Source: Carcharhinus amblyrhynchos (Eukaryota). From it: 64,000 bases of DNA. Both the position numbers and the translations under genes were made by a program. Below, piece by piece: positions 2,455-59,217 of this stretch. The notes under the pieces were generated by a model that was not told the origin of the DNA, made no database searches, and saw only the letters and a list, made by a program, of their open reading frames with translations. Within the stretch, counting starts at the first letter, position 1. Every line of letters begins with the position of its first letter. The stretch lies in assembly GCA_965287045.1 (NCBI GenBank), contig OZ336885.1:64542001-64606000 (forward strand), given 5' to 3'.

Positions 2455-4540
2455 CCATAAAACATTGGTCCAGAATTAAGCCACTCGGCCCATCCAGTCT
2501 TCTCCACTATTCAACCGTGGCTGATATTTTTCACATTCCCATTCTCCTGGCTTTTCTCCATCACCCCTGATCCCCTTACTGATCAAGAAACGATGTATCT
2601 CTATCTTAAAGACATTTAAACACCTGGCCTCCACAGCCTTCTGCCACAAAGAGTTCCACAGATTCGCCACTCTCTGGTTGAAGAAATTCCTCCGTATCTC
2701 TATTCTAAAGGATAGTTCATTCAGCCTGAGGTTGTGCCCTCCTTTTTTTTCTACAAGTGGAAACATCTCCTCCACGTCCACTTAATCCAGGCCTCGAAGT
2801 TACCTGCAACTTTCAATAGGATCCCCCTCATCCTTCCAAACTCAAGCAATTCAGACTAAGAACCCTTAACCATTCCTTATCCGAAAAGCTCTTCCTGACA
2901 GCCATCATTCGTGTGAACCTCCTCTGGACCCTTTCCAAAGCCAGCTCATCCTTCCTTTCACGTGGAGCCCAAAACTGCTCACAATACTCCAAATTGGGTC
3001 TGGCCAGAACCTGATACATCCCTGGTCTTGCACTCTAATCCTCTGGACGTGAATGCAACATTACATGTTCCTCCCTATCTGCCGACTGAAACTACGTGTT
3101 TACTTTAAGGGAATCCTGAAAATGGTACGAAAGTCCCGTTTTGTTTCTGAATTCCTAATCCATTCCCCATTTAGTAAATAGTGTACACCTTCATTCCTTC
3201 TTCCAAAGTACATAACCTCACACTTTTCCACATTGTATTCCATTTGCCATTCTTTGCCCACTCTCCTAACCCGTCGAAGCCTTTCCGCAATCCCCCTGTT
3301 TTCTCAAGGCTACCTGTTCCTGTACATATTTTTGTATCATCTGCAAACTTAGTGACAGTTCCTTCAGTTCCTCCGTCGAAATCGTAAACGTATATTGCGA
3401 AATGTTATGGTCCCAGCACTGACCTCAAAGACACACAAGTCACGGGCTTCTATCCTGAAATAAAAATATTTATCAAACAATCCTCTATCCATACCCGGAT
3501 ATTACCCTTAACAGCATGAGCTCTTAATTGAGTTAAACCACCTTTGCAGCACTGTGTCACGTGGCTTTTGGAAATCTAAATAAACATCGAACGTTGAACA
3601 GTACAGCACAGAACAAACCCTGCGACCCTCGATGTTGCGCCGACCTAACTCCGAGCCAAAGATCGAGCGATCCCACTCCCTTTCATTCTGAAGCCATTTC
3701 CACGTCATCTCCTTCAGCGAAGGTCCTTGTTACCTCGTCAAATATCTCTGAGATTTATTGGACATGGCCTCTCCTTGACAAGGCCGCGCTGACTCAGTCC
3801 TAATTTATTATGGACTTCCAAGTTCTCTGCGATCTCATCTTTAATAGTGGATTCTAAAATCCAATGACTGAAATCAGGCTAAATGATCTATAATTCCGTG
3901 TTTCCTACTTCCCTCCCTTCTTAAATAGCGGCGTTATATTAGCTTATTTCCTCTGGTACCCTCCCTGCTTCCAATGATTCTTGAAAAATCACCAACAATG
4001 TCTCCAAAAGTTCGTCACTTATCTCTTTGGGAAGATTGGGGTGCAACGCATCCTTTGCAGGTGATTTATCCAGATTCAGTCCTTTCAGTGTACCCAGAAA
4101 TTTCTGCTTCGTGATGGCAACTACACTCAACTGTTCTATTCTGACATTTCTGGAGCTCTGGATACAAATATGATTTTATGTTTGGAACTAGCTTATACTC
4201 TTCTCCTCTTTTATTTCTTTTTTGTTCTTTTTCTCTGCTCGCTTTTAAAGGCTCCACAATCCTCTGGCTTCCCACGAATCACTGACTCGTTGTATGTTTT
4301 TCTTTTGCTTTCATGTGACCCTTGACTTATCTCATCTGCCACGAATGTATTGTAATCTCATAAGCATGCTTCCTCCTCATTGTGATGAATTTCTGTTGTA
4401 CTCCCGAATAACTCTCCAAAAAAACAGCCATTGTTGTTCCATTTTCTTCCCTGCGAGGCTTTCCAATCAACTCTAGCCAGCTCTCCATCACGTCTTTTCA
4501 CGCCGACCATGTTTATTGTAATTCTGCCCTTATATGTTCC
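2455..4540 (-). mobile_element. Decayed CR1 LINE (ORF2 RT to 3' end)
   Basis: ORF pieces LDKSPAKDALHP, YLDFQK, RPNLEYCEQFWAP, RRNFFNQRVANLWNSL; extra short tail fragment at ~3580-3680. Confidence 0.92.
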
Positions 4541-4567
4541 TTTTCTGTCTCCGGAATGCATAATTAC

Positions 4568-4633
4568 CTTTGCGATTCCACAACTTAATTTCATGCAGGC
4601 CAACATTGAAGTTATGTTTCTCCTTAGTTTTCT
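4568..4633 (-). CDS. 66-nt phase-1 exon, (E)KTKEKHNFNVGLHEIKLWNRK
   Basis: tgatttcttcag|AGAAAACT...CGCAAAG|gtaatt; duplicate of 7225-7290 with no indel or stop. Confidence 0.6.
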
Positions 4634-6240
4634 CTGAAGAAATCACAAGTATTCGAAATATACTCCCTCCGAATAGTGATTCACACGTCCTGCTGAGATC
4701 TCCAGGGTTTTTTTATTATTTGTTTGGATTCCTCCATTGATTTGTTTGGACAAAATAGACTAAATTTTCTTTACTTATGCCAGGGACTAATGGGCTGACA
4801 TCTGCAATATTGTCTACACTATAGGTCTAATGATAGAAGTGATAATGCAGTTCAAACAATTCAGAGAATAAACACTGCACTAATAACATGGGATGGAGGT
4901 TTTGACACATGCAAAATTTTGGGCAAACTAGGATGAATTTACAGGCGTTTCGTACAAGAAGAGTGAAAGTCAATGTAAGATTCCAGTTCATGAGCAGTTG
5001 TGAGGGAAAGGAAGTGAAGTGGATAAGTCCTCTTGTGCGATAATCTGGAACCAAAGTAACGTCTTATAAATATGCAATCGCTTGCATGTGACAGGGATTA
5101 TTCGTTTCCTCTTTATATGGGGACATAAAAACTTAGGGCTTTGGAGCTGAAGTAACTGATACAGGTGGCGGAGCCTTCTGCTTCATTTAATCCACCAATG
5201 ACCTATTTCTTCCTGCTGTCAGATCGAGCTGGTTACCTGTTCCTCATGTTCGTTATGAATTTAAATTTTTAGACAAGAAATACACCTATGTAGTTCTTGA
5301 AGAAAAAGCTTTAGGGTCGTTTGTGCTATGGGGCACAGAATTTCACAATATCACGACCATATGCGAGAATTAATTGCAACTCACATCGGTTTGAAATTCC
5401 ACGTTTCTCAATATGCAAATTTGAGCCTTATTTTCGAACAGTTTTCTGAAACTTCCTCAGTATCTTCCAAAAAACGAATTTAGAATAGTTTTATTTTTAT
5501 TTCTTTGTGAATAGGCATCCATTTTTTCCAACAAAAGCTCGTCCATTATCAATGGCAGGTGGATTCAGGTTTGTGGTTACAAATCAGAACAGATACGAAC
5601 CAATCAAACGATGAAGATTATCTGTGGGGGGGGGGGGGGGGTGGAGAGCGGGGGAGGGTGCGGGGGGACTGACTGTTCAAAATTATCCAGAGTTTTTGGT
5701 AGACTAATGAAATATATCTGCAGTGATTTAAAAGCCAAACCCAACTGGAAAAGCAGAAACTAAAACAAAATGCATACATTCAATTGATGAAAAGGAAATG
5801 ATGTCCCTTCCAATCTGAAATATACACTAAATTTCAACTTTTGATGGTAACCCATCAAGGATGAAAAACGAAACATTCCAGCACAATGAATAAAAATGTC
5901 ACTATTTAATGTTTGAGCTTCTATGTTTGCGACGCAATTGTAGAAACCCTACACTGTGCTTTAGTCATTTTTTTGCCCAGTATCGGTATGGTATTAAAGA
6001 TGAATTATTAACTGTCTCGTTTGAGTGAACATGTGGAAGCCGGCAGATTAATCGATATAATTACTTCAAAATAATGACGCTAGACAATTATTATTTAAGT
6101 ACGTTAGTAACAATTGAAATATTTACCCCATTGAAAAGTTCAAACAGTCAACAGTTATTCTTTATTTTGCAAAATGTCTTATCCCTTCCAACAGCTAATT
6201 CAAGTAACCAAATCATCATGCAGCTAAATCACATACTTTT

Positions 6241-6590
6241 AGAACAAAGAACAAAGAACAAAACAGTCCGAGAAACAGGCCTTTCGGCCCAACGAGCCTG
6301 CGCCGCCATTTTAACTCCGCCAGTGACCCCCCCCCCCCCCCCAAACCATGACCCTCATCTATTGTTTTATGGCTATCCACATTGAGGGAAACTAATTTAG
6401 GGACAATTTATTACTGCCAAGCTGCTTAATAGCACATCTGTGGGGTGTGGGAGGAAACCGGAGCACCCGGAGAAAACGCACGCAAGCACTGAGAGAATGC
6501 GCAAACTCCCACAGGCACTGGCCCAAACCCATGTATCTCCACAGCAAACAGTGATAGTCACTGAACTGTCGTCTTGCCCAGCATTTGGTC
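6241..6590 (-). mobile_element. HE1-like tRNA-derived SINE
   Basis: ggaggaaaccggagcacccggagaaaacgcacgca core; (agaacaa)n tail. Confidence 0.85.
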
Positions 6591-7154
6591 CCGTTTAAGC
6601 ACACACTAACGACATGAAGCACTAGGCCAATCTCGAACAACCAAGAGAAGCCCAAGTAGGACCCATCGCGTGTAATGGATTTCCATTTGTATCAAAGGAA
6701 AAAAAACATAATAATTAAACTGTTGGGATAATGAGTTGCATCCATCGCCATTGCTGTGGCTGGGGCTGGGTGCCTCAAACGTCCGTGGACACTCCCTCCT
6801 GGAATGTCAGAAAACAATTGTGCCGCAATTGTTCCTGCATACATTGACTTTTTTTTTATGGCGTCCTTGACGTATTCGTCAGCCACGGGAACCTTGTCCT
6901 CCCATTAGTATGCTTCTCCTTCATTGGGATGAATTTCTGTTGTGCCTCCCGAATAACTCTCTAAAAAAAAACCTTCCATTGTTGTTCCACTGTCTTCCCT
7001 GCTAGGCTCCCTTCCAAATCAACTCTGGCCAGCGCTTCCTCATGTCTTTCTATTACGAACGTGTTGATTGTAATATGTCCTCTTTTATACACCTTTTCTG
7101 TCTCCAAATTCATATTCCGCCCCATATCATGACTACTGCTCGGGAGTGGGGGCT

Positions 7155-7205
7155 GTGTGTGTGTGTGTATGTGTGTGTGTGTGGGCGGGGGGGGGGGGGG
7201 GGGGG
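7155..7205. repeat. (GT)n microsatellite followed by poly-G
   Basis: Read directly; lies ~20 nt inside the intron from the 7225 donor. Confidence 0.95.
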
Positions 7206-7224
7206 AGGTTGTTCAAAAAACTAC

Positions 7225-7290
7225 CTTTGCGATTCCGCAACTCGGTTTCATGCAGGGCAACATTGAAGTAAACTTTCTCCTTAGTTTTCT
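7225..7290 (-). CDS. 66-nt phase-1 exon, (K)KTKEKVYFNVALHETELRNRK
   Basis: tgatttcttcag|AGAAAACT...CGCAAAG|gtagtt; open frame; same length as its duplicate; donor is weak. Confidence 0.6.
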
Positions 7291-8889
7291 CTGAAGAAAT
7301 CAGAAGTACTCAAAATATACCCCTCTAAAATGTGATTCCCCCGTCCTGCTGAAATCCCAGTTTTGTTGTGTCCTTTTTTTTTTGACTTGCTGGGATTCCT
7401 GCATTTTGTTTTTTGACAAAATAGATGAACGTTCTTTTTCTTATTATACCAGGCACTAATGGGCTGAAATCTGCAATACGGTGCACACCATAGCTCTAAT
7501 TATAGAAGTGCTAATGCAGATGACACAATTCAGAGAGTATTCACTGCACGAATACCGAGGATGAAGGTTTTACCTCATGCAAAATTTTGGGCAAACCAAG
7601 ATGAATTTACTGCCGTTTATTACAGCAAGAGTGAATTTCAGTGCAACATTCCAGTTTATGAAGGTTTCTGAGAGAAAGGAGGTGAAGTAGATAAGTCCTC
7701 TCGCGTGTTCATCTGGAACCAACGGAACTTCTTATAAATATGCAATCGTCAATCTATAGCAGAGATTAGTCATTTCCTCTTTATATCAGGACGCAATACG
7801 TTCGGAGTTTGGAGCTGAAGTCGCCGATTCAGGTGTTTGACCCTTCTGCTTCATTCAGTCCAACAATGGCTTATTTCTTCCCGCTGCTAGAGCGAGCTAG
7901 CTACTTGCTCCCCATGTTATTTATGTACGTACTTATTTTTTTAGACTCAAAATATGCCTTTCTATTCCTTGAAAAAAAAACACGATTCAGGGTCCTTTGT
8001 ATTATGGGGCAACGAGTTTCAAAATTTGACTACCTTTTGCCGAGAATTAATTGCAACTCACCTCAGTTTGAAATTCCACTTTTCTCAATATGCAAATTTG
8101 AGCTTTGTTTTCAACTAGTGTTCTGAATCTTTCTCAGTATCTTCCAAAATACGAATTCGTTAGAGTGTTACTGTTGTTTCTTTATGAATAGGTATCCATT
8201 TTTTGAACGAAATGCTGGTCAATTATCAGTGACAGGTGGATGCAGATTTGTGGTTAAAATCAGAACAGATATGAGCCGATCAAACGATGAAGATTATATT
8301 GGTGGATGTGGGTGGGGTTGGGGGGAGAGGCGGAGGTGAAGGATCGAATGTTCAAAATTGTTCCAGCGTTTTGTAAAATGATGAGATATATCTGCAGTGG
8401 TTTAAAAGCCAAACCTCACTGGAAAAGCAGAAAAAAAACTCAGACATTCAGTCAATATGTACTGATTTTCAACTTTTGATGTTAACTGTCAAGAATGCAA
8501 AAAAAAAGTAACGTTCCAGCACAATGACCACAAATGTCATTAGTTCATACTTGAGCTTCTATGTTTGCCACGAATTTATAGAAACGCTACACTGTTCATA
8601 AGTCACTTTTTTTTATATACAACAACCGCGCAACCTTTGCCCAGGATCGGTATATTAAAGATAAATTGCTGACTGCATTGTTTGAGTGAACATGTGGAAG
8701 CTGGTAGAACAATCGATATACGTGCTTCAAAAAAACGATGCTTGACAATTATTATTTATGTACGATAGCAACAATTGGAATAGTTACCCATTGTGATGTT
8801 CAAGCAGTCCACATTTATTCTTTCCTTTGTGTTATCTCCTCCAACATGAAATTCGAGTAACCAAATAAACATGGAGTTAATTCACTTAC

Positions 8890-8916
8890 TTGTCTCGATT
8901 TCTTCCGACTCTTTCT
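8890..8916 (-). CDS. 27-nt phase-1 micro-exon, (K)KESEEIET
   Basis: cttttgcctcgacag-type acceptor|AGAAAGAGTCGGAAGAAATCGAGACAA|gtaagt. Confidence 0.75.
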
Positions 8917-10898
8917 CTGTCGAGGCAAAAAGTACACACACAAGATATACTACTGGATGTCCATTTGTAACAAAGGGAAAAAATGGAATAATTAAACTGC
9001 TTGAATAATGGCTTGCATCCATTGCTGGTGCTGGGGATGGGTGCTGCAAATGTTGGTGGACACTCCCTCCTGGAATGTCACAAAAAAAATTGTGCCGCAA
9101 TTGTCCAGCAGCTGGAAGTTGTCATTCGCAAGTTTCCAGTCCTAAAAAAAGCGAATCAAATTTTAAATTATAGCGATTCAGACGTGTTTACATTAATACT
9201 TACTGTTAAATAGATGGAAATAATAAGACTGCTACCCACCTCCAAATAAATATTTGTATTATGCAGCAACATTCCTACATAAAGGTCCTTTACCTGCCGA
9301 AATCGGACGAGATTCCACGACACATCTAAAAGTTAGGTCCACCCTTCCCCGAGGACATAATCGACTGGCTTTAGTTATGATCTTCATCGATCTGAACAGG
9401 GATATTCCCCGCTTTCCAACATGGTCGGGTTCCACTGCACAAGTAAACTTGATTCATCTGGAGCTTTCTTCTCAGAATAAACCTAACCTGACAAATTAAA
9501 AATGATAACACCCCGCCCAAAACACTCCAACTCCAATTTGGCCTGAACAACAAAACCCACATCGAAGCTCCCACATCCCAGAGATTCCCCTCAACCCAAA
9601 CGATTCGAAATAACGTTGCACTCACCACTACATTACATCACAAAATACTCAAAATCAATAATGAACTGTCCGTTAATTCATCATCCAGATGCGTCTCATA
9701 TCCGAAGACCAAAGGCACGCCACCCCTTCATCGCGCTGTTGCCTGAGGCACCCGCAACCTCCCAAGCACCAAACACGTGACTTTAACCCTTCTGTAGCGC
9801 CATCAGTTCGTCTTTCAGGAATTGAAATTTTAAGGCAATTTTTCATTGCCTGATACAGTTTTGTGGTCCGCTAAACTGCGGCTTTAAAATATTCTGCCGC
9901 TGTATTGGCGACCCACGAGACTGCCTGGGCTTTATTGGGCTTCAGTCAGGGAGATCATTTGATAGACTAACTTCGGATTTCTCCTTTCATGAAGACGAAT
10001 TCCCGTTCTTGCTCTTCTCATCCAACACAATGTGAATTTTTGAAAACAGCATCCTGCATCCTTGTCTTTTTTTTTCATTCAAGGTAAATTTTGCGAAATT
10101 TTGAATCTCCAGAATATCAGAGAAACTTTTTGAGGGAGGATGCATATCATAACACTGCAATAGTAGTTCCAACTCCTCTACATGTGACAGGCAATGATTT
10201 TCAATATTGCAGGCAGGCATTTCAGCTGACAAGAATGTCTGGAAGTTCCTGACAGTATGAATTATAATTGGAGTTGTGACATATCTCTACTACAATCGCC
10301 TATTGTAGCCTATCGGATTCCGAAAAGATTGAACACCGAACTCCTGTTTTTTTTTCTGCGAAAATGCTCTTACGATCTAAGAACATTCCACCCAACAGCC
10401 ACGAAATCTTCCAAAGCACCCAAGTTGCAATAGGAATCCGCCGTCCTGTATATCTTCAATTGCCCGACGATAGTATTTGTGCCAATTGCTCCTCGGAAAT
10501 TGTGGCCAAATGGAATACATAAAACATCAGTTGGCTAGTCGACGAAACGATTGCCGGTGGAAAATAACATGCCTTTCACGCGAACAACAGGTTATTCAAA
10601 CGTGCTGATTGGGCATTTGGATTTGCACTGGAACGCTTTCCCACTTTAGTGCATGAGTCATTATCACAGTACTTTTCTTGTTTGAGTGAACACGTGGAAG
10701 CTGGTAAAATAATCGATATACTCGCTTCAAAATAACGATGCTTGACAATTATTATTCATGTACCGTAGCAAAAATTGCATTAGTTACCCCATTGCGATGT
10801 TCAAGCAGCCCACATTGATTCTTTCCTGTTACCAATATATTTTCTCTTACGAACATGAAATTCAAGTAACCAAATCATCATGCAACTAAATCATTTAC

Positions 10899-10916
10899 TT
10901 TTCTCGATTTCCTTCT
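10899..10916 (-). CDS. 18-nt micro-exon copy with damaged acceptor, (K)KEIEK; possibly skipped
   Basis: gatgaagacttgacag|AGAAGGAAATCGAGAAAA|gtaaat; a deletion at ~10927 removed the polypyrimidine tract. Confidence 0.4.
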
Positions 10917-12471
10917 CTGTCAAGTCTTCATCGATCTGAACACGGGCATTCCCCGCTATGCAAACGGATCGCGTTCCACTGCACAACCATAATTACTTCA
11001 CCAGGAGTTTCCTCAGAAATATAACTAAACCTGCAAATTAAAAATGAGAGCACACTGCCCCAAAAACTCCCAGTACATTTTGCCCTGATCAACAAAAGCA
11101 GCATCGACGCTCCAAATTCACAGGGATTCCCCTCACCCCAAACCATTCGAAACAACTTTGCCCTCGCCCGTATAATACAACACAACATACACAAAATCCA
11201 CAATGAAATGTCTGATAATTCAGCATCAAGATGCGTCTCATATCCAAAGACCAAATGCGTGTCGTCCTTTCATCGCTTCGATGCATGAACGGCCTCCCCA
11301 GATGGGCCCATCCGCAACCTCGCAGGGATCAAACACAAAACTTTAACTCTTGTCTAGCTTCATCACTTCGGCTTTGACCAATTGGAAGTTTAATGCAATT
11401 TATCATTATCTGATGCAGTTTTGTGTTCCGCTAAACGGCGGCTTTAAAAGTTACTGCCGCTGTGGTGGCGACCCACTCGACGGTGTGGGCTTTATTGGGG
11501 TTCTTTCAGGGAGATCAATTGACAACGCAAAGTCGGATTTCTGCTTTCATCAAAATAAACTCCTGTTCGCGCTCTTGTCATCCAACACAAGTGAATATTT
11601 GGAAAACAGCATCATGCCTTTTTTTAAATTCTCTTTTTGTTTCATCCAAGGCAAATTTTGCGAACTTTTGAACCTCCAGAATATCAGAGAATCCTCTGAT
11701 AAGGAGAATGCATGTCACAGCAGTGCAATCGTAGTTACAACTCTTATAAATCTGTGACAGTCACTTCCTTTTTTAAAATTACAGGTCGGCATTTCAGCTG
11801 ACAAAAGTATCTGCAATTTCTGAAACTGTGAGTTATAATGAAAATTGGGACATGTCTCTACTACAATCGCTCATTGTAGCCTATCGGATTCCAAAAAGGT
11901 TCAGCACCTAACTCCTGTTTTCTCTGAAAATGTCCATTTACAGTCTTAAGAAAATTGGACCCAACAACCACAACATTCTTCGGAAGAACTCGCATTGCAA
12001 AAGGAATAACGTGGTCCTGCATATCTTTAATTGCCCGACGATAGTAATTGTGTCAATTGTTCCTTGGACATTGTAACCAAATGAAATAAATAATGCATCC
12101 CTTGACGAGTCGGCGAAACGATTACCGGTGGAAAATAACATGCCTTTGACGCGAACAACAAGTTATTCAAATGTGCTGACTAGGCATTTGTATTTGCACT
12201 GGACTGCTTTCCTCTTCAGTGTATGTGTCGCTATCGCAGTACGTTTTTTTTTTGTCTGAGTGAACACGTGGAAGCTGGTAGAATAATCAATATACTTGCT
12301 TCAAAACAACGATGCTTGACAATTATTATGTATGCACCTTAGCAACAATTGCAATAGTTACCCCATTGCGATGTTCAAGCAGTCCACGTTTACACTTTCC
12401 TTTGCAAAACATCTTATCCCTTCCAACATGAAATTCAAGTAACCAAATCATCATGCAGCTCAATCACTTAC

Positions 12472-12489
12472 TTTTCTCTGTTTCTTTCT
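12472..12489 (-). CDS. 18-nt phase-1 micro-exon, (K)KETEK
   Basis: tttttgccttgacag|AGAAAGAAACAGAGAAAA|gtaagt. Confidence 0.7.
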
Positions 12490-13402
12490 CTGTCAAGGCA
12501 AAAATTAAATTGACAAGATACAATGATGGTTGTCCATTTGAAACAAAGGAAAAATAAAGCAATGATTAAACTGCTTGAATTTGGCTGGCAACCATCGCAT
12601 TTGCTGGCGCTGGGGTGATGTGCCCCAAATGTGCGAGGGAGAACGGATATCATAACAATGCAATAGTCGTTCTAACTCTTCGATATCTGTGACAGACAGT
12701 GATTTTCAAAATTACAGGCAGGCATTTCAGCTGACAAAAAAATCTGCAAGTTTCTGCAACTTTGAGTTATAATTAGAATTGTGATATATCTCTACGACAA
12801 TTGCTTATTGTAGCCTAACGGATTCCGAAAAGAATTAACACCTAATTCCTGTTTTCTATGAAAATGCCCACTTACTGTGTTAGGAAAATTACACCCAAGA
12901 ACCACGACATTTTTCAAAAGAGTTCACATTGCCATAGGAATCGCGTGGTCCTGTATATCATCACTTGCCCGAGGATAGTATTAGCGCCAATTGCTCGTTG
13001 GGCATTGTAGCCATATGGAATACATAAAACATTCCTTGACTAGTCGATGAAACGATTGCCGGTGGAAAATAGCATGCCTTTGACGCGAACAACAGGTTAT
13101 TCAAATGTATTGACTGGGCATTTGTATTTGCACTGCACCGCATTCCTACTTCAGTGTACGTGTCGTTATCACAGTACTCTTCTTGTTTGAGTGAACACGT
13201 GGAAGCTGGTAGAAGAATCGATATACTCGCTTCAAAGTAAAGATGCTTGACAATTATTATTTATGTACCTTAGCAACAATTACAATATTTACCCCATTGC
13301 GACGTTCAAGCAGTCCACATTTATTTTTTCCTTTGCAAAACATCTCATCGCTTCCAACATGAAATTCAAGTAAGCAAATCATCATGTAGCCAAATCACTT
13401 AC

Positions 13403-13420
13403 TTTCCTCTGTTTCTTTCT
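13403..13420 (-). CDS. 18-nt phase-1 micro-exon, (K)KETEE
   Basis: tttttgcctttacag|AGAAAGAAACAGAGGAAA|gtaagt. Confidence 0.7.
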
Positions 13421-14333
13421 CTGTAAAGGCAAAAATTAAAATTACAAGATATAATGGTGGATGTCCATTTGGAACAAAGGGAAAAAAACACAATAATTAA
13501 ACTGCTTGAATAATGGCTTGCAACCATCGCAATTGCTGGTGCTGGGGATGAGTGTCCTAATTGTGCGAGGGAGAACGCATATCGTAACACTGCAATAGTA
13601 GTTCCAACTCTTCGATACCTGTGACAGACACTGGTTTTCAAAATTACAGGCAGGCAATTCAGCTGACAAAATAAAATCTGCAAGTTTCTGCAACTGTGAG
13701 TTATAATTAGTGTTGTGATATATCTCTACTACAATTTCTTCTTGTAGCCTAAAGGATTCCGCAAAAAAAAACACCTAACTCCTGTTTTCTACGAAAATAC
13801 CCACTTACTATCGAAGAACATTACACTCAACAACCACCACATTCTTCTGAAGCACTCACAGTGCAATATGGCTCACGCGGTCCTGAATATCTTCACTTGC
13901 CCGACGATATTAATTGCGGCAATTGAGCCTCGGACATTGTAGCCAAATGGAATGCATAAAACATCCATTGACTAGTTGGCGAAACGATTGCCGGTGGAAA
14001 ATAACATGACTTTCACGCGAGCCAAAGGCTATTCAAATGTGCTGACTGGGCATTTAGATTTGCTGTCGACCACTTTCCTACTTCTGTGTATGTGTCGCTA
14101 TCGCAGTACTTTTCTTGTTTGAGTGAACACGGAGAAGCTGGTAAAATAATCCGTATACTTGCTCCAAATTAAAGATGCTTGACAATTATTACTTACATAT
14201 CTTAGCTACAATTGCAAAAGTTACCCTATTACAATGTTCAAGCCGCCCACATTTATTCATGCCTTTTCAAAATATCTTATCTCTTCCAATACGAAATTCA
14301 AGTGACAAATCATTATGCAGCTAAATCACTTGG

Positions 14334-14360
14334 ATTTCTCGATTTCTTCCGCCTCTTTCT
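14334..14360 (-). pseudogene. Inactivated 27-nt micro-exon copy (donor GT replaced by CC)
   Basis: tttttgccttgacag|AGAAAGAGGCGGAAGAAATCGAGAAAT|ccaagtga versus gtaagtga in sister units. Confidence 0.75.
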
Positions 14361-16369
14361 CTGTCAAGGCAAAAACTAAATTCACAATATATAATGATCG
14401 ATGTCTATTTGTCACAAAGGAAAACAAAAACAAAATAATTACACTGCTTGAAGAATGGCTGGCAACCGTCTCAACTACGGGTGCTGCGGATGTGTGCCCC
14501 AAATGTGCGAAGACACCCCCTCGTGGAATGTCACAGAAAAATACACAATTTGTGCCGCAACTGTTCAGCAAACTGAAAGTTGCCATTCACAAGTTTCTTG
14601 TCCTAAAAAAAATAAACGATTCAAGTAGTAAATTTTAGAGATGCAGAAACGTTCGAATTAATACTTACTGTTAAATAGATAGAAACAATGAAACTGCTGC
14701 CCACCTCCAAATCAATATTTGTATTATGCAGTCAGACTCCCACATGAAGATCCTTTGTCTCCTGATATCGGATGTGACTCCACGAAACTTTTAAAAAGCC
14801 CACCCCACACCGAGATCTTAATCGACTGGATTTAGTTATGATCTTCATCGATCTGAACACGGACATTCCCCGCTATGCAAACGGATCGCGTTCCCCTGCA
14901 CAACCGTAATGGATCCATCTGGAGTTTTCCTCTCAGAAATATAACTAAACTGGCAAATCAAAAATGGCAGCACCCCGCCCCAAACACTCCCACTGCATTT
15001 TGCTCTGATCATCAAAACCAGCAACGAAGCTCCCACATCCCAGGGATTCCCCTCACCTCAAATGATTCTAAACAACCTTGCCCTCACCAGTATAATACAC
15101 CACAACATACCCAAAGTCCACAATGAGATGTCTGATAATTCATCATTCAGTTCCCTTTCATATCCGAAGACCAAAGGCATCGCGTCGATGCCTGAACCGG
15201 CCTCCCCAAATACTGCCATCCGCAACCTCCCAACTATTAAACACATAGCTTTAACTCTTATGTAGCGCCATCACACCGGAATTCTCAAATTCAAAAATCA
15301 ACGCAATTTTTCATTATCTGATACAGTTTTGTGGTCCGCTGAACGGCAGCTTTAAATGATTCTGCTGTTGTGGTGATGACCCACTCGACTGCCTGGGCTT
15401 CACTGGGCTTTCGTCAGGAAGATCAGTTGACAGCCTAACTTCGGATTTCTTCTTTCATCAAGATGATCTCCTGCTCTCGCTCTTCTCAGCCGACACAATG
15501 TGAATATTTGGAAAACAACGTCACACATGTTTTTGATTTTTTTTCATCCAAGTTAAATTTTGCGAAGTTTTTAATCTCCAGAATATCTGAGAAACATCTG
15601 TGGGGGAGAATGCAGATCATAACACTGCAATAGTAATTCCAACTCTTCTACATCTGTGAAAGACAGTGATTTTCAAAATTATAGCAGACGTCTCAGCTGA
15701 CAAAAATATCTGCTATTTTCTGAAACTGTGAGTTATGATTAGCATTGCGACATATCTCTCCTACAATCGCTCATTACAGCCTATCGGATACCGAAAAGAT
15801 TTAACACCTAACCCCTGTTTTTCTACGAAAATGCCGACTTACTACCTCAGAGCATCACACCCAACAACCACAACATTTTACTAAAGCACTCACATTGCAA
15901 TAAGAATCACGCGGACCTCTATGCCTTCAATTGCTGGACGATAGTATTTGCGCCAATTGCTCCTCGGTCATTGTAGCCAAATGGAATACATTTCTTGGCT
16001 CGACGAAAAAAACGATTGCCGGTGGCAAATAGCATGCCCTTCAAGCGATCAATATGTTATTCAAATGTGCTGACTGGGCACATTTGAGTTGGATTTGCAC
16101 TGGACCGTTTTCCTACTTCAGTGCATCTGTCGCGGTCACATTACATTTCTTGTTTCACTCAGCACGTGGAATCTGGTAGAATAATCGATATACTTGCTTC
16201 AAAATAAAGATGCTTGACAATTATTATTTATGTACTTGAGAAACAGTTGCAATATTTGCCCCATTACGACGATCAGGCAGTCCACATTTATTCTTTCCTT
16301 TGCAAAATATTTTATCTCTTCCAATATGGAATTCAAGAAACCAAATCATCATGCAGCTAAATCACTTAC

Positions 16370-16387
16370 TTTTCTCTATTTCTTTCT
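16370..16387 (-). CDS. 18-nt phase-1 micro-exon, (K)KEIEK
   Basis: ttctgcctcgacag|AGAAAGAAATAGAGAAAA|gtaagt; phase 0 has TAG. Confidence 0.7.
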
Positions 16388-19300
16388 CTGTCGAGGCAGA
16401 AATTAAGTTTAGAAAATATAATAATGGATGTCAATTTGTAACAAAGGAAAAATGATGCAATAATTACACTGCTTGAATAATGGCTTGCATCTATCGCAAA
16501 TGCTGGTGCTGGGGATGCGTGCCCAAAATGTGCGTGAGCACTCCCTCCTGGAATGTCATAATAAAACAACAATTTGTGCCGCAATTATCCAGCAGATGGA
16601 ACTTGTCATTCGCAAGTTTCCAGTCCTAAAACAAGAAGCGATTCAAATTTTAAATTTTAGAGATACAGAAACGTTTACATTGATAATTACTGAAAACAGG
16701 TAGAAAGAATAAAACTGCTGCCCATATCCAAATAAATATTTGTATTATGCAGCAAGATTCCTACACAAAGATCATTTACATCGCGACATCGGGTGAAACT
16801 CCAACAAACTTTTAAAAGTAAACCCACCCCGCCCCCTTCCCCACCCCCGCAAAAAAACTTAATCGACTGGGTTTGATTATGATCTTCGTCGATCTGAACG
16901 CGGATATTGCCCGCTATTGAACCGGGTGGCGTGCCACTGCACAATCAGACTTGATTCATCTGGATTTCTCCTCTCACAACCATAACTAACCTGACAAATT
17001 AAAAATGGCAGCTCCCCGTCCCAAACACTCCTTGTCCATATTGCCCTGATCAACAAAAAACAGCATCGAAGCTCTCACATCCCAGGGTTTTTCCTAAACC
17101 CAACCGATTAGAAAAAAACTTGCCCTCACCATTATAATTCACCACAACATGTCCAAAATCCCCGATCAAATCAATGATAATTTAGCATCCAGATGTCTCT
17201 CTTATCCGATGACCAACAGCACGCCATCCCTTCATCGAGTCGATGACTGAAACGGCCTCCGCAAATACGCCCACCCGCAACCTCGGAAGTATCAAACACA
17301 TAACTTAAACTCTTGTGTACCACCATCACTTTGGAATTGTCTAACTGAAACTTCAACGCAATTGTTCAATGTCTGAGACAGTTTTGTGGTCCGCTAAACG
17401 GCGGCTTTTAAAGATTCGGTCGCTGTGGTGGCGACCTACTTGACTGCCTGTGCTATATTGGGCTTCAGTCAGGGAGATCAGTCGACAGCCTAACTTCGGA
17501 TTTCTCCTTTCATCAAGATGAACTCCTGCTCTCGCACTTCTCAGCCGACACAAGGTGGACATTTGGAAAACAGCATCTCGCATTTTTGGATTTTTTTTTC
17601 ATCCAAGGTACATTTCGAGAAATATTGAATGTCCAGCATATCAGAGGAACATTTATGAGGGAGAACGCATATCAAAACACTACAATCGTAGTTCCAACTC
17701 ATCTATATCTGTGACAGACACTGATTTTCAATATTACAGGCAGGCATTTCAGCTGACAAAAAAAAATATGCAAGTTTCTGAAACTGTCAGTTATCATTAG
17801 AATTGCGACATATCACCAGTACAATCGCTCATTACAGCCTATCGGATTCTGAAAATATTTAACACCTAACTCCTGTTTTCGACGAAAATGCCCACTTGCT
17901 ATCTAAGAAAGTTACACCAAACAACCACGACATTCTTCTAAAGCACTCACATTGCAATAGGGATCACGGGGTCCTGCATATCTTCAATTGTCTGACGATA
18001 TTTTTTGCGCCAATTGCTCCTCGGTCATTGTAGCCAAATGGAATACATCTCTTGGCTCGTCGACCAAACGTTTGCCGGTGGAAAATAATATGCTTTCATG
18101 CGAACAGCAGGTTATTCAAATGTGTAGTCTGGGCACTTGTATTTTCACTGGACCATTGTCCTAATTCAGTGTATGTGCGGAATTACAGTACTTTTGTGGT
18201 TTCCTGGCGTACAACATTTGAGTGTCGCTATGGCCTATTGTTGCTTACGAGGCAAGTCGCCGTTCCACTGAATATACTAAACACAAATGCTACAAAGGGA
18301 AACTGACAATCGTAAGTCATTGAGCACATTGTAAGTATTGTTGGAGTTTTGGTTCACAGCAATGATAAGCGAAAATTCTTTTAAATCCGAGTGTGATTGA
18401 TCACTTGATTTCAATTATAACATACGGTCTGTTGGAATTTTGAAATCCGAGTGTAGGACATTGATATGCACCTATGGCTTCCGCTGCTATCAATAACATT
18501 CTCCGACAGCTGCTATCAACATTATGGTCCCTGGTGAGTATTTGGAACATATAATGGACTCGAGCAGAGCCAAATGTTGATACTGGGAATTAATTTATTC
18601 CACATGCATTTATGGAATTAAAACAAGCGGTGTTTGTAGTCGAATGATAACTTCAAGCAGATGAAGGAAAAATAGTAACTTTTCGTTAAGTATAGAAATG
18701 CCTTGGTACCGCAATTAAAATATGTACTTTTCCGTCTATGTTATCATCATATTTTACATGAAATTAGAAGAAGGGAGAAGATTTGGCTGGCAAAAAGTAT
18801 CAGCATTATCATCAATAATCCTGAAGTATGCAGGTTAAAAAAAAACAAACGGACAGTAGGATGAATATTGTGAAGACAAGGAGAAAATTGGTATGGCCTG
18901 TTTCATGCCTACATGTCAATTTGCAAAAGGAAGGAGCTTCTGCAAAATCAGCATTTATTTATATTTTAACCCATCCCTAAATTGCGCGGAGAGAGAATTG
19001 TTCAGGGAGCTTCTTGATGTCAGAGGTCCTACGTTTAATATGTAGCTGGGGTGTTGTGTGGCGCTACAACAATTTTAACACAGTATAATAGAGGAACTAT
19101 GGTGCATTTCAAGATCGGGAACTGAGTGCCTTGGCGCTCAGATTGAAATTGCTTCTATTCGCATGCACGTGTTTCCCCATTGGCTTTGTTTGTAGAGTCT
19201 GTCTGTGTCTTAAATGGTGTACAAAAAATGATGCAAATTAAATTATGGTATTGGAATAAGTGGCAATTATGATGGAAAAAAAAACTCCAGAAACCGTATT

Positions 19301-27733: not shown

Positions 27734-27769
27734 TGAAATCTGTACTTTCGGTCTGACACTGCTTTACTT
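27734..27769 (-). CDS. 36-nt phase-1 micro-exon, (K)VKQCQTESTDF
   Basis: atcatctttgcattttacag|AAGTAAAGCAGTGTCAGACCGAAAGTACAGATTTCA|gtgagt; paralog of 45534-45569. Confidence 0.85.
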
Positions 27770-28659: not shown

Positions 28660-31600
28660 ATGATAAAAGGGCAAAACAGTCATAAGAAAAACAAATACAT
28701 AACAGACAAAAGAAAAATAATGGAGAATTTATGGGTCTTAAGGATCAACAAGTTCATTTCTGTGCGGGTCCAAAAGAGACGGGTGAGATTCTAATTAATG
28801 ACTATTTCTCATTAGTATTTACTGTTGAGAAAGGAGTGAATGTTAGTGAATTTGGGGAAATCGATAGTGATATCTTGAGGAGTGTACATGTTACAGAAAG
28901 TGAGGTATTCGGTGTCTTAAGGCGCATCACGGTAGGTAAATTCCCGGGACCTGATGAAGTGTGCCCCACGACAGTGCGGGAGGCTACTGGTGGGAGGGGG
29001 GGGGGGGGGGTTGCAATTGTGCTTGCCCTGGCCGAGATATTTGTATTATCGATCGTCACAGGTGAGGTGCCTGAAAATTGGAGAGTGGTAAATGTTGTGC
29101 CTTTGATTAAAAAGGGCTGCAGGGAAAACCCTGAGAACCACAGGTTAGTGATCCTCATATCCCTGGTGGGTCAGCTGTTGAAAATATTTTGAGTGTCAGG
29201 ATATGCAGGCATTTCGAGAACAAGGACTGATTAGGAAAATTCAGGATGCCTATGTGAGTGAAAAATAATTTCGCACAAATTTGATTGAGTTTTTTGAACG
29301 GTAACCAATAGGTAGAGGAGGGCACTGCAGTAGATGTTGTCCGTATGGACCTGAGCAGTGCCATTTACAAGGTACCACATGGGAGATTGTTGCATAAGGT
29401 TAATTCCCGCGGGATCCAGCGTGAGGTATCTCAGTGGATAAAAAAAAAGGCTTCTCAACAGAAGCCAGAGGGTGGTTGCGGAGGGTTGTTTTTCAAACTG
29501 AAGGTCTGTGATCTGAGGTGAGCCTTAGGCATCAGTGCTGGGTCCTATGTTATTTGTTATTTGTATTAATGTTTTGGAAGAGAATATAGTAGGCCTGCCT
29601 AGTAAGTTTGCAGATGACATTAAGAATGGTGACATCGTGGAAAGTGAAGTAAGTTGCAATGGGATCTTGATCTGTTGGGTCAGTGGGCTGATGAATGGCA
29701 GATTAAGTTTAATTTAGACAAGTATGCGGTGATGTAGTTTGATAGATTGAACCAGGGCAGGATTTACTCAGTGAATGGTAGGGCGTCGGGGAATGGTACA
29801 GAACAAACATATCTGGCGTTACATATTCATAGCTCCTTGAAAGAGAAGTCACAACTGGGCAAAGGGGGAGAAGAAGTCATTTGTCATATTTGGTTCCATT
29901 AGTCAAAACATTGAATACAGGAGTTGGGGCATATTGTGCAAGACATTGGGAAGACCACACTTGGAATATGGTGCGAAGCTCTGGTCAGCCTATTACAGAA
30001 AGTACATTAATAAACTAGAAAGACTGCAGAACAGAAATACGAGGATGCTACCTGAACTTGATGATTTGAGTTATAAGGAGCAGCTTGATAGATTGGGACA
30101 TTTTTATCTGGAACGGAGGAGGCTGAGGGGTTACCTTATTGAGGTCTACAAAATAATGAGTGGCATATAAAAAAGGATAGCAAGAGTTTTTATAAGTATA
30201 TAAAAAGGAAGAGGCTGGCTAGGGTGAACGTTGGACCCTTAGAGGATGAGAAGGGGGACTTAGTGGTAGGGGATGGGGAAATGGCTGAGGTCTTGAATAA
30301 CTTTTTTGTTTTGGTCTTCACGGAGGAGGACGTGAAAAATTTGCCGGGTGTTAGAGATGGAAAGGTGGTAGGACTGGAGGGTCTCAATGACATTACTGTT
30401 ACTAGAGAAGCGGTGCTCGACAGACTGGAGGGGCTGATTGTGGACAAGTCTCCAGGACCGGATGGAATGCATCCGAGGGTTCTGAAAGAAATGGCGGAGG
30501 TGATAGCGGATGGCTTGGTGGTTATTTTCCAGACGTCGCTGGATTCCGGGGAAGTGCCGGAAGATTGGAAAGTGGCTAAGGTTACACTGTTGTTTAAGAA
30601 GGGTGCCAGGCAAAAGGCGGGGAATTATAGGCCGGTTAGTTTAACGTCTGTTGTAGGTAAAATGTTAGAATCCGTCATCAAGGAGGAAATAGCGAGGCAT
30701 CTTAAGGGGAATTGCTTGATAGAGCAGACGCAGCACGGTTTCGTGAAGGGGAAGTCGTGTCTGACGAATTTACTGGAGTTCTATGAGGATGTGTCTAGGG
30801 CGTTGGATAGGGGAGAGCCGGTGGATGTGGTCTTTCTTGATTTTCAGAAGGCATTTGATAAGGTACCTCACAAGAGGTTATTGCAGAAGGTCAGGGGACG
30901 TGAATTTAGGGGTAGGGTGTTAGCGTGGATAGAGGACTGGTTGTCAAATAGGAGGCAGAAAGTGGGGGTCAATGGGTGCTAGTCGGATTGGCGGTTGGTG
31001 ACTAGTGGAGTGCCTCAGGGTCGGTGCTGGGGCTTCAGCTATTTACCATTAATATCGATGATCTGGAGGAGGGAACCGAGTGTAGGGTGTCGAAATTTGC
31101 TGATGACACCAAGATTGGTGGAACGGCAAATTGTGCGGAGGGTGTGGAGAGTCTGCAGAAGGATCTAGATAGGCTGGGCGAATGGGCCAGGAACTGGCAA
31201 ATGGAATTTAATGTTGGCAAGTGTGAGGTGGTCCACTTTGGTAGGAATAATGGTAGAAAGGATTATCACTTAAATGGAGAAAATCTGCAGCAGGCGACGG
31301 TGCAGAGGGACCTCGGGGTCCTTGTGCATGAGTCGCAAAAAACAGCTTGCAGGTGCAGCAGATGGTCAGGTAGGAGAATGGGATGCTGGCCTTCATAGCG
31401 AGGGGGATTGCATATAAAAGTAGGGAGGTCTTGCTCCGGCTGGACAGGGCATTGGTGAGGCCGCAGCTGGAGTACTGTGTGCAGTTTTGGGCGCCGTACT
31501 TACGCAAGGATATTTTGGCCTTGGAGGTAGTGCAGAGGAGGTTTACTAGGCTGATGCCGGAGTTGAGTGGGTTGAGCTATGAGGAGAGGCTGAATAAACT

Positions 31601-32360
31601 GGGCTTGTACTCGTTAGAGTTTAGAAGAATGAGGGGAGATCTCATTCAGACGTACAAGATGATGGATGGGATGGATAGGATAGAGGTGGAGAGACTCTTC
31701 CCGCTCAGAAAGGACAGTAAGACTCGGGAGAACAGCCTCAAGATAAAGGGGGGGCGGTTTAGAACGGAGTTGAGGAGGAACTTCTTCACACAAAGGGTGG
31801 TGAATCTCTGGAATTCTCTGCCCGTTGAAGTAGTGGAGGCTACCTCGCTAAATATTTTTAAGACGCGGGTTGATGGGTTTTTGATAAGAGAGGGGGTTAA
31901 GGGTTATGGGGAGAGAGCCGGAATGTGGAACTGAGCCACGACAGATCAGTCATGATCTTATTGAATGGCGGGTCAGGCTCGAAGGGCCAGATGGCCTACT
32001 CCTGCTCCTATTTCTTATGTTCTTATGTTCTCATATATTTTCCCAAATGCAGAAAAGTCTAAAACTAGAGGACATTGATTTAACGTGAGAGGGGAGAGAC
32101 ACAAAAGTGTTCAAACTGACATGTTTTTCACATAGAGGATGGTGAGTTTCTGCAACAAGCTGCCAGATGCGGTAGTAGAGGCGGGTACAATTTTGTCTTT
32201 TGAAATAACATATAGATAATTATAAGGATATGATGGGTAGAGAAGGCTATGGTCAAATGTAGGAATTGGGATCAGGTTAGTGTTTAAAATAAATGACGGC
32301 ATAGACAAGTTGAGCCGAAGGGCACGTTTCCCTGTTGTAAATCTCTATGATTCTATGAGT
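28660..32360 (+). mobile_element. Old CR1 LINE split by a nested younger CR1 (old parts 28660-30165 and 32030-32360)
   Basis: GKFPGPDEVCP, SKFADDIK, RPHLEYGAKLWS; resumes after the insert with ttttcccaaa...ctaaaactagaggacat; tail tctatgattctatga. Confidence 0.9.
30166..32030 (+). mobile_element. Young 5'-truncated CR1 LINE, ORF2 RT nearly intact (one stop, two frameshifts)
   Basis: ORFs 30224-30982, 31024-31398, 31383-31934 with NYRPVSLTS, LDFQKAFDKV, KFADDTK; (ttcttatg)n tail. Confidence 0.97.
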
Positions 32361-33964: not shown

Positions 33965-35330
33965 TTAAGAATATAAAAACTCGGAGCAGGAGTATGTCAT
34001 CTGGCCCCTCGAGCCACTCCCACCATTCAATAACATCATGGCAGATCTTTCTTTTGAAGACTCATCTCCATTTGCCGCCCCCCCCCCCCTCCACAACTCA
34101 CCATAACCCTTATTTCCTTTACTGTTCAAAAATGTATCCATCCTTGCTTTAAAGAACATTCCAAAAAGATATCCTGAACTGCTTCACTGAAGGGGAATTC
34201 CAAGATTCACAATCCTTTCTGTGAAGATGTCCCTCCTCAACTCGGACCTAAATTACTTTCCCTTATTTTGAGGCTACAATCCACCCTCCCCCCCCCCCCC
34301 CCACCCCACCCCGCAGTCCTCCAGTTCTACATTCACCCGCCAGTGGAAACAACTTTCCTGCTTCGATTTAATCTAGTCCCTTCATAATCTTATTTGTCTC
34401 TATAAGATCTCCCTCTCCTTCTTCTGAATGCCAGCCTACTCCATTTCTCCTCATAAGCCAAACCTCTCAACTACGGAATCAACCTTGTGAATCTCCTCTG
34501 AACCCCCTCCATCGCCTGTTTATCTTTTCTCAAGTAAGGTGACCAAAACTGTACACAGTACTCCAGGTGGGGGACTATTCAGTAGCCACTTAACCTCGCT
34601 GTTTTTAAACACTATATCTCTGGCCATGAACGATACAATTCCACTTGCCTTATTGATTAACTGCTGCACCTGCAAACCAACTCGTTGGGACTCCTGTACA
34701 AGGATACCCATGTCCCTCTGCACAGATCTTGCTGCATTTTTTAATCATTTAAACAATATTCATTTTGTTGTTTTTCCTACCAGAATGGATGACCTCACAT
34801 TTATCAACATTATACTCCATCTGCCAGTCCCTCGCCCACTCACTTCGACTATCTGCCGGCTTTCGACGAACTCTCCACACTTTGCTCTGCCACCCTTACA
34901 GATGACAACGATCTTAGTGTCGTCTGCAAATTTTGACACTACACTTCATCTCCTACTCCAAATCATCTGTGGAAATCGTAAACATTTGCGGTCCCAGCTC
35001 TGATCCCTGAGGCCACCACCCCCGCCCTTCCACTCGTCACAGATCGCTAACCAGAAAGAGAAAAAACACCCACTTACCCCCACTGTTTGTTTGTAGTTAC
35101 TAAACTAATCATCTGTACATGTTAATGGGTTATCCATAACATTGTGCACCTTTATCTGACGTAACATTTTTCGTTGCCTTCTGGAAATCCAGATACACCA
35201 GAACCACAGGTCCCGCATTGTCCAAAGCACATGCAGTATTCTTAAAGACTTCCCGAAAATTAGTTAAACATGACTTTCTCTTCATTAACACGTGCTGCGT
35301 CTTATCAATATATACTTTTTTTTATCCAAG
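33965..35330 (-). mobile_element. Decayed CR1 LINE 3' part
   Basis: QRDMGILVQES, FKARMDTFL, CR1 tail ggagcaggagta. Confidence 0.9.
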
Positions 35331-35720
35331 GGCAATTTAACGTATATTGCCTTGTAAGTTCTGAGTTTCAGTCCCTCAGACATGCTTTGTTTTTTTTTAA
35401 GAACAACATTCCAGCGGAAAGAAAAAACATGTGAACTTTTCTATTTGGTGCGCAATTAGAGAAACTTTCGCCCAGATCAATATGATGTTAAAGTTGACAT
35501 CCTGATTACTCCAAATGTGGTAACTGCTAGAATAATCGATACACTTGCTACAAAATAATGACACTGAACAATTATTCCTTATGCACGACAGCAGCAATTG
35601 GAACAAACGCCCCACTGTGATGTTCAAGCAATATACATTCATTCATTCCTTTGCAAAATGATTCATCACTTGTGACATAAAATTCCAAGAATCAAATCGT
35701 CATGCAGCTGAATCGCTTAC

Positions 35721-35747
35721 TTTTCTCAAGTTCCGCCACCTCTGACT
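35721..35747 (-). CDS. 27-nt phase-1 micro-exon, (K)SEVAELEK
   Basis: ttcttccttgacag|AGTCAGAGGTGGCGGAACTTGAGAAAA|gtaagc. Confidence 0.85.
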
Positions 35748-45533: not shown

Positions 45534-45569
45534 TTGAATCCTTAATGTCTTTTTCGCATCCTTTCAGTT
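45534..45569 (-). CDS. 36-nt phase-1 micro-exon, (K)LKGCEKDIKDS
   Basis: atcatctttacattttgcag|AACTGAAAGGATGCGAAAAAGACATTAAGGATTCAA|gtaagt; phases 0 and 2 contain stops (TGA, TAA), only phase 1 is open. Confidence 0.85.
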
Positions 45570-55930: not shown

Positions 55931-56659
55931 TTTTTTTTGTTTGAATTCCTGCGTTTTTAAATGGGACAACATTAGCTAAAATTGGCTTCATTTCACCGAG
56001 AACTAATAGGCCGACAGATAGAATAGTGTGTACATTTTGGTCGAATTTTAAGTGAAAATGTAAATGTGTTTGAACCAGTTCAAGATTATTTGCAGATTAT
56101 TAACTGGTTTGGACGATTTGTGTTATGTATATTTGCATAAATCACAATTGATTCGAACGTGTTGTTAGAATTGCAACAGTGAAATTTTCAGACACATTTA
56201 AGTTCTTGAGCAATTTTGAATGACTGGTGTTGAAGTCACTGGTTCCTTTGTTGTCATAATTTAGAACCACAGGTACCTCTTACAGATGTACAATCGCCTA
56301 TCTATAACAGATTTTTTTTTGTCCGTTGTGACATGGGAAACAGGATGTTAGGAATTCGGAACTGAAGCAGCCAATTCAACTGTTGACGCCGCTGTATCAG
56401 AGTATGTCTAACTTATTCCCGGTCTCAGATCTACACCACTATGTGGTCTCCATGTTTGTTTGTTTTTAACATAAATATACCTATGTCATTCTTGAAACCA
56501 TTTAATGACTCAGGCTTCGGAATACAATTAGGCAGCGAGTTGCAAATTTCACTAACTTCAGCGAGAATTAAGTTCAACTCATCTCAATTCGAAATTTTTC
56601 GCCTCTTAACTGTAAATGTGACTTCTTGCTCTCTCATATTTAAAGAGTTTCTGCAAATA

Positions 56660-59190: not shown

Positions 59191-59217
59191 TTTCCTCTTT
59201 TTCTGCCGCCACTTTCT
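59191..59217 (-). CDS. 27-nt phase-1 micro-exon of coiled-coil gene, (x)KVAAEKEE
   Basis: tttctcccttgacag|AGAAAGTGGCGGCAGAAAAAGAGGAAA|gtaagg; paralogous to 35721-35747 and 8890-8916 with the same length and splice sites. Confidence 0.8.

Follow-up and report, generated by a model that had tools for sequence, protein, structure and literature searches.

Among the described systems that come closest to the locus analysed here, the chicken BG genes encode a long predicted coiled coil by means of a tail of 13-38 small heptad-type exons, mostly of 21 nucleotides (nt) and in a few cases of 18 or 24 nt; the number of these exons is variable, the length of the heptad tails is known to vary, and length is altered by alternative splicing in the form of intron read-through (PMC5938342, PMC4046983). 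The BG genes also carry immunoglobulin V (Ig-V) and transmembrane exons (PMC5938342, PMC4046983), and they have no B30.2 domain. The butyrophilins have Ig domains, a membrane span and only a few heptads (PMC4046983). The MEG genes of Schistosoma have 10-20 short exons, mostly multiples of three, with long introns, a signal peptide and splice isoforms, and their products are small secreted parasite proteins (PMC10526429), which have neither a rod nor a B30.2 domain. The present work concerns an array of six tandem units, each carrying one micro-exon, on the minus strand of a 64,000-nt stretch of DNA from Carcharhinus amblyrhynchos (C16:64,542,001-64,606,000 in a 2.92-Gb genome), together with the very large gene that hosts this array. 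The whole stretch is referred to as the window, and all coordinates lacking the prefix C16 or C9 are given on its scale.

Like the chicken BG genes, the host gene has many small in-frame exons of the heptad type (161 candidates of 15-36 nt, 30 of them of 21 nt). However, its approximately 160 candidates mainly show a 36/27-nt alternation, they extend over more than 1.5 Mb and they likely lead to a B30.2 end; further, no Ig-V or transmembrane exon was found in it, the N-termini of its relatives are signal-like, and the length mechanism reported for BG in these papers is read-through and not cassette skipping (PMC5938342, PMC4046983). The likeness to BG tails that was proposed in the initial annotation holds for the heptad-type micro-exon design, but not for the location of the segment, whose predicted place is within a rod that precedes a B30.2 domain, in a probably secreted protein, rather than in a cytoplasmic tail. 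With the mammalian butyrophilins (viz. BTN3A1 and its kin) the host gene shares the order of heptad exons followed by a terminal B30.2 exon, and the B30.2 domain of BTN3A1 is the solved structure nearest to a paralogous B30.2 domain (E 1.6e-17), but the B30.2 domains of the present family belong to a separate cartilaginous-fish clade. The resemblance to the MEG genes, in short exons that are multiples of three and in long introns, is by analogy only. A very long heptad rod ahead of B30.2 is also known in the guinea-pig enterophilins, and the teleost salmon protein XP_045550229 has such a rod as well as a signal-like start; however, its B30.2 domain falls outside the clade of the host gene and its rod is no more similar to the rod described here than are shuffled sequences (36 matches vs 25-37 in shuffles). 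As the tests for Ig, transmembrane and RING parts failed within the limits stated below, the host gene, judged by its sequence, appears to be a stretched form of the heptad-exon plus B30.2 design and is not filed as BG, butyrophilin, TRIM or MEG. No description of the gene family or of the array was found in the open-access literature, subscription papers and supplements being outside the scope of this search.

Structure and proposed origin of the micro-exon array

The interval 8678-18177 is filled by six tandem units (Table 1); three of them measure about 2.0 kb, another 1.57 kb and the remaining two 0.93 kb each. Their pairwise identity is 80-85% over about 750 nt, and at this level an assembly duplication and chance were both rejected as the source of the array. 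As the initial annotation had stated, these six units of block A stand against a single 27-nt exon in each of the blocks B and C, and the flank of the block B exon (35524-37550) is 67% identical to an array unit. The sizes of the micro-exons, one per unit, are 18, 27, 18, 18, 18 and 27 nt in the 5' to 3' direction, in agreement with the order 27, 18, 18, 18, 27 (dead) and 18 annotated earlier by ascending coordinate. The claimed origin of the shorter size by a frame-preserving loss of 9 nt is borne out by one 9-nt gap, located between two short direct repeats, that is common to all four 18-nt copies, and the reported GAA-richness is likewise seen (3-4 GAA per copy, purine content 0.81-0.94). 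The symmetric phase 1 assigned to these exons is fixed by the remainder of the host gene; however, it is not derivable from the array exons alone, because phase 2 is also open in all six of them.

Table 1. Micro-exons, array units and exon-like segments of the window
Feature	Position	Strand	Condition
Array unit 1	16150..18177	-	full length, 2.03 kb
18-nt copy of unit 1	16370..16387	-	intact splice sites
Array unit 2	14115..16150	-	full length, 2.04 kb
27-nt copy of unit 2	14334..14360	-	dead, donor lost
Array unit 3	13183..14115	-	0.93 kb, ~1.1 kb of intron deleted
18-nt copy of unit 3	13403..13420	-	intact splice sites, best scoring
Array unit 4	12252..13183	-	0.93 kb, intron deletion shared with unit 3
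18-nt copy of unit 4	12472..12489	-	intact splice sites
Array unit 5	10678..12252	-	1.57 kb, ~500 nt deleted up to 8 nt before exon
18-nt copy of unit 5	10899..10916	-	crippled: pyrimidine tract deleted, weaker donor
Array unit 6	8678..10678	-	full length, 2.0 kb
27-nt copy of unit 6	8890..8916	-	intact, score 18.5
Seventh copy	6019..6834	-	destroyed: donor- and acceptor-side flanks kept, exon replaced by ~430-nt insertion
36-nt phase-1 micro-exon, block A	27734..27769	-	directly upstream of array, score 9.0
27-nt phase-1 micro-exon, block B	35721..35747	-	
36-nt phase-1 micro-exon, block B	45534..45569	-	score 12.9
27-nt phase-1 micro-exon, block C	59191..59217	-	score 19.0
66-nt exon candidate	7225..7290	-	doubtful, weak donor (score 1.8)
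Duplicate of 66-nt candidate	4568..4633	-	doubtful, inside duplicated block 4562-6238

In the reading that we favour, and to which we give about an even chance, the array would have arisen long ago, when 2 kb of intron were duplicated in tandem together with their 27-nt exon, and its intact 18-nt copies would be optional, frame-neutral inserts that are tolerated but not selected. The unit may first have doubled, after which one of the two copies would have lost 9 nt by slippage between the two short direct repeats, a process by which the in-frame size is explained without selection. The resulting pair of 18- and 27-nt units would then have doubled in turn; in agreement with a duplication of two units at once, 8678-10924 aligns with 14115-16395 across the boundary between units. 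The two shortened units of the 18-nt type would have been added last. The trees of the copies do not resolve the duplication order (support 21-64).

All copies are in phase 1 and have lengths divisible by three, and since their inclusion therefore cannot shift the frame, selection against new copies should be weak and their decay slow. If the gene is transcribed, splicing is predicted to include anything from none to all three of the intact copies; the gain would be 6, 12 or 18 residues, and the local repeat would comprise 21, 27, 33 or 39 residues depending on inclusion. A 6-residue insert shifts the heptad register, as had been noted initially, and since the inserts consist almost entirely of K, E and T with nearly no hydrophobic core, they would form a short charged break in the hydrophobic seam. 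The change in length would amount to about 1% of a rod of at least 1,500 residues.

Condition of the copies and evidence for decay

Judging by the 36/27 alternation of the gene, it is probably the 27-nt copy at 8916-8890 that works together with the 36-nt exon at 27769. The next 36-nt exon candidate lies at C16:64,539,030-64,539,065, some 2.9 kb outside the window on the side of its first position. There are six extra copies, if the seventh is included, and of these three are intact (at 16.4, 13.4 and 12.5 kb) and three are broken. The intact ones have acceptor scores of 1.4-5.2 and a donor score of 5.1, the medians for 62 exons of 27 nt being 4.4 and 3.9, respectively. The copy at 14.3 kb has CC in place of the donor GT and ends in T, due to which a stop codon would be created at 7 of the 7 downstream junctions tested. 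Hence, the earlier proposal that any subset of the copies can be included applies to the three intact 18-nt copies, which are frame-neutral, but not to the dead 27-nt copy. Decay has also gone further than the single dead copy that had been recognised, for the copy at 10.9 kb is crippled (6 of 17 upstream positions are pyrimidines vs 12-14 in seven other exons checked) and the seventh copy is destroyed. By chance, the deletion junction of the crippled copy also gives rise to a 27-nt exon candidate in frame (10925-10899), the acceptor of which is very weak (score -3.9).

Identity among the six array copies (15 pairs) is 86.4% in the exon, 88.9% at the splice positions and 84.7% in the intron, and the tree of the copies is nearly star-like with a total length of about 0.57. 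At the nine splice positions 3 changes were observed vs 5.1 expected (P 0.25), and at the AG/GT positions 2 vs 2.3 expected (P 0.60). Damage is found in 3 of the 6 extra copies vs 0 of 12 ordinary 27-nt paralogues (Fisher P 0.025, for sets whose branch lengths are unmatched). These data fit relaxed constraint, with which usage of the copies remains compatible. However, they do not support the earlier view of the array as a maintained module, since three of the six extra copies are broken, the exon is no more conserved than the intron and the changes at splice sites fit neutrality.

A set of nine more recent tandem units, of 13-22 kb and about 93% identical, is present further upstream at C16 ~64.63-64.78 Mb (89-242 kb on the scale of the window). 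Each of them contains one 36-nt and one 27-nt exon, and most also contain pieces of endogenous retroviruses and long interspersed nuclear elements (LINEs); the set contributes nine repeats of three heptads each and is a good candidate for variation in copy number. When these units served as a control, their 27-nt exon was found to be 97.9% identical vs 92.9% for the intron, and the splice sites of the 27-nt exons were intact in 9 of 9 units. The array copies are older than these units, which are 6-7% apart, and also older than the split from the genome represented by a sequence run (X1), which is 2-3% apart. This run covers 30 of 30 bins of 4300-18600, introns included, at 2-3% difference, and thus behaves as DNA of a related genome and carries no splicing information. 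One of its contigs joins positions 13333 and 16369 with 32 other letters between them, which reflects either a misalignment of paralogues or a different arrangement of units in that genome.

The host gene and its likely B30.2 end

Phase-1 exons of 12-66 nt were scanned for over 1.645 Mb using hand-set splice and residue weights. The counts are for this reason approximate; even the 36-nt exon at 27769 lies under the cut-off of 10. Scores above 12 were obtained for 143 matches on the minus strand vs 4 on the plus strand. The 161 non-redundant candidates scoring above 10 (62 of 27 nt, 57 of 36 nt, 30 of 21 nt, 7 of 15 nt and 5 of 18 nt) jointly encode about 1,500 residues (23% K, 14% L, 14% E and 4% C). 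In the 5' part there are about 30 exons of 21 nt, and these are followed by a long series in which sizes of 36 and 27 nt mostly alternate; 36 plus 27 nt correspond to three heptads, but runs such as 27-27-36 occur too. A genome-wide search with the 21-nt pattern gave 5 matches, all at this locus, and none in the control, and genome-wide patterns revealed micro-exon fields on C16 at 60.47-61.25 (-), 62.35-62.77 (+), 63.24-65.42 (-) and 65.53-66.39 Mb (+), with a further field on C9 at 104.1-106.3 Mb (-).

By means of a SPRY motif, two B30.2 exons that face each other were located at C16:63.068 (+) and 63.149 Mb (-), of which the latter has a phase-1 start and lies 5 kb beyond the last 27-nt exon of its gene. 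The B30.2 paralogue used as the query proved to be a SPRY domain, and the search with it identified seven loci with E <1e-20, six on C16 and one on C9. The nearest downstream B30.2 on the strand of the host gene is at C16:63,735,740-63,736,261, 806 kb from the window; its frame is open and it is 46% identical to the query paralogue. A terminal phase-1 B30.2 exon was thus read directly in two paralogues, whereas for the host gene it is a search match only. The scan of 1.784 Mb from 63.78 to 65.57 Mb revealed no B30.2, a result that favours a single gene over this stretch. The likely extent of the host gene is 1.5-1.7 Mb, and its likely product is a coiled-coil rod with a divergent B30.2 domain at the end. 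From this architecture we infer a cysteine-bearing, oligomerising coiled coil that would hold B30.2 binding heads at a distance.

Several other family memberships were considered. No Ig family was recognised in 146 and 150 selected open reading frames (ORFs; 79 of 470, 67 of 322 and 150 of 360 listed ORFs), and no Ig motif in the host-gene region, 400 kb of which was covered by the motif only, the first exon not having been found; with the same limit on the first exon, the upstream Ig-V and transmembrane exons expected of a BG or butyrophilin gene were not found. No N-terminal RING or B-box was present in the scanned ORFs or in 7 of 7 cartilaginous-fish relatives, again with the limit that the first exon of the host gene was not found. 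A tetherin/PLVAP cluster would be marked by its position next to PLVAP, and this locus was rejected as such, the single PV-1 match being on C26 and not on C16. Ends of the C-type lectin and C1q types were also rejected, as they gave no match near C16:60-67 Mb (59 matches with 150 of 211 candidates scored, and 56 matches with 64 candidates). The family searches with SPRY and PRY missed the locus (150 of about 375 candidates scored), and of the 189 matches of a canonical PRY motif, the first 100 listed included none on C16.

The region C16:60.45-66.44 Mb contains a cluster of at least six genes of the micro-exon rod plus B30.2 type in both orientations, and at C9:104.1-106.4 Mb a further field with B30.2 lies beside clusters of TRIM-type B30.2 and C-type lectin genes; the C9 match at 106.38 Mb is upstream of the micro-exon field there and hence is not the end of that field. 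At C16 ~65.353 Mb, a short 36/27-nt series lies 5' of the 21-nt exons and its final 27-nt exon resembles the last exon before B30.2, but no B30.2 follows; this series is possibly a truncated paralogue or a separate 5' segment. An intron of the host gene (segment L102:1671-6905) harbours a copy of an endogenous retrovirus with long open frames and matches to reverse transcriptase and protease.

Relatives in cartilaginous fishes

A homologue search over 1.84 billion representatives returned RefSeq models from skate, catshark, electric ray, basking shark, epaulette shark, whale shark and chimaera, whereas word-index homologue searches were empty, which is weak evidence. In a B30.2 tree of 27 rows, in which one own-genome TRIM-type row that was out of frame and on a long branch was given no weight, the B30.2 domains of these models and two from the own genome form one clade (support 100/100) apart from the TRIM-type rows. 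SPRY was the sole family match in 7 of 7 relatives scanned. The proteins XP_055510696, XP_042192744, XP_069775384, XP_038672306 and XP_060706632, which combine a coiled coil with B30.2, share this clade and have similar rod peptides, and the rod peptides gave 46 matches to the 1,697-residue chimaera protein vs 17-28 in shuffles. However, unlike the host gene, most of the models are short (175-460 residues) and are named after TRIM, A33 or nuclear-pore proteins; none of them equals the host gene in length, and they are regarded here as relatives at the level of the family. Three relatives (295, 267 and 1,697 residues) begin with a hydrophobic, signal-like segment, as judged by hydropathy and by eye, and the models of the others look 5'-incomplete. 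The product of the host gene is probably secreted and located outside the cell.

Isoform models differing by single blocks were found for some of these genes. One internal 6-residue block is missing in Narcine X2 and one internal 9-residue block in Narcine X3, Scyliorhinus X2 and Callorhinchus X2, and these are the sizes encoded by 18- and 27-nt exons. Exon skipping is therefore plausible in this family.

Evaluation of alternative explanations

The optional inclusion of tolerated copies, as proposed above, has to be weighed against several results. Expression of the gene and inclusion of the copies are predictions from sequence alone, and the RefSeq isoforms are models that come from paralogues and not from orthologues of the array. 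The four undamaged copies show 0 changes at the nine splice positions vs 3.1 expected (P 0.047, a value that applies to copies picked because they are undamaged), and conservation of the 36-nt exon in the nine recent units falls below that of its intron (88.7% vs 94.2%), due to which the comparison of exon with intron is a weak test in this fast-changing gene. The B30.2 exon of the host gene was located by a search match 46 kb beyond the scanned span, and its first exon was not found, as scans for a signal-peptide exon gave 14 and 116 candidates, none of them convincing.

If the 18-nt copies are too short to be recognised or lack enhancers, then only the 27-nt copy at 8916 would be spliced and the others would be silent pseudo-exons. 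The absence of excess conservation, the loss of splice sites at a neutral rate and the breakage of three of the six extra copies are all in keeping with this possibility, as is the rarity of the 18-nt size in the gene (5 of 161 candidates, 3 of them in the array). However, the intact copies have splice scores as good as ordinary exons have, GAA is abundant in the copies, the seven 15-nt candidates in the gene indicate that short size is no bar, and a related gene has a modelled 6-residue skip. Based on these considerations, silence of the copies is unlikely, although it deserves to be kept in mind.

It is also conceivable that the three intact 18-nt copies are always included, giving a fixed repeat of 39 residues (12+6+6+6+9) that would contain a single stutter and a charged hinge without a core, and that the two copies which would have disturbed it were lost. 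The number 39 leaves a remainder of 4 when divided by 7, which under the rules for coiled coils is the mildest break of the register, and the perfect splice sites of the four intact copies (P 0.047) also agree with a constant use. However, a tolerated remainder arises by chance in about 2 of 7 cases, no excess conservation of the exons is seen, and other parts of the gene also deviate from 21-residue repeats, hence the register is loosely constrained. A fixed insert is thus rather improbable.

The suggestion of the initial annotation, viz. that the array is a selected module in which regulated combinatorial inclusion varies the length or flexibility of the rod, as in BG tails or MEG products, appears still more doubtful. 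The frame-neutral design, the good splice sites of three copies and the modelled single-exon skips in three related genes speak for such a module, and variation in the length of heptad tails is reported for BG (PMC5938342). However, every second extra copy is broken, no more than 18 of at least 1,500 residues would be affected and slippage explains the in-frame size; further, all exons of this gene are equally skippable and thus the array is not special. Lastly, it is highly improbable that expression of the host gene, or of the part considered here, has ceased and that the copies are without exception fossils, for although the first exon was not found, about 160 candidates have intact sites and open frames, the 27-nt exons of the nine recent units are more conserved than the introns with splice sites intact in 9 of 9, and the B30.2 frame is open.

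Other features in the surroundings of the array

The 66-nt segment at 7225, which had been named as an exon in the initial annotation, is doubtful as such: its donor is weak, and a duplicate of it exists at 4633-4568. In the repeat units upstream, 8 positions match it weakly (E 0.0008-0.24) but lack the acceptor AG; the segment may be intron sequence. The two 66-nt exon-like segments, both with open frames, lie in a 1.7-kb duplication 3' of the array (4562-6238 and 7219-8891, 75% identical). LINE fragments are present in the introns at 30143-32030, 28692-30165, 33966-35013 and 56654-58065, and one of these is young, being about 90-94% identical to many nearby copies.

Significance for the gene family

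By itself, the array is a modest case of exon birth and decay, and the host gene surrounding it matters more. A much broader interpretation, which we regard as speculative and rather unlikely, is that of a cartilaginous-fish family of giant, secreted, disulfide-linked rods tipped by a B30.2 recognition domain, encoded by megabase genes with 100-200 frame-neutral micro-exons whose combinatorial skipping would vary the length and flexibility of the rod, the array being a young hinge cassette. For the optional, tolerated copies that we favour, the array would provide a snapshot of a micro-exon rod gene gaining and shedding exons, in which frame-neutral copies accumulate at low cost and then decay. 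The host gene also draws attention to a cluster of very large genes, extending over 6 Mb, which annotation largely misses or misnames and which have a B30.2 clade of their own. If the product is indeed secreted, then an immune recognition domain that is normally cytoplasmic would be placed on the end of a very long extracellular rod. Further, if combinatorial skipping does occur, then these genes would represent a vertebrate counterpart of the micro-exon variation of parasites and would offer a testable link to the heptad tails of the BG and butyrophilin genes.

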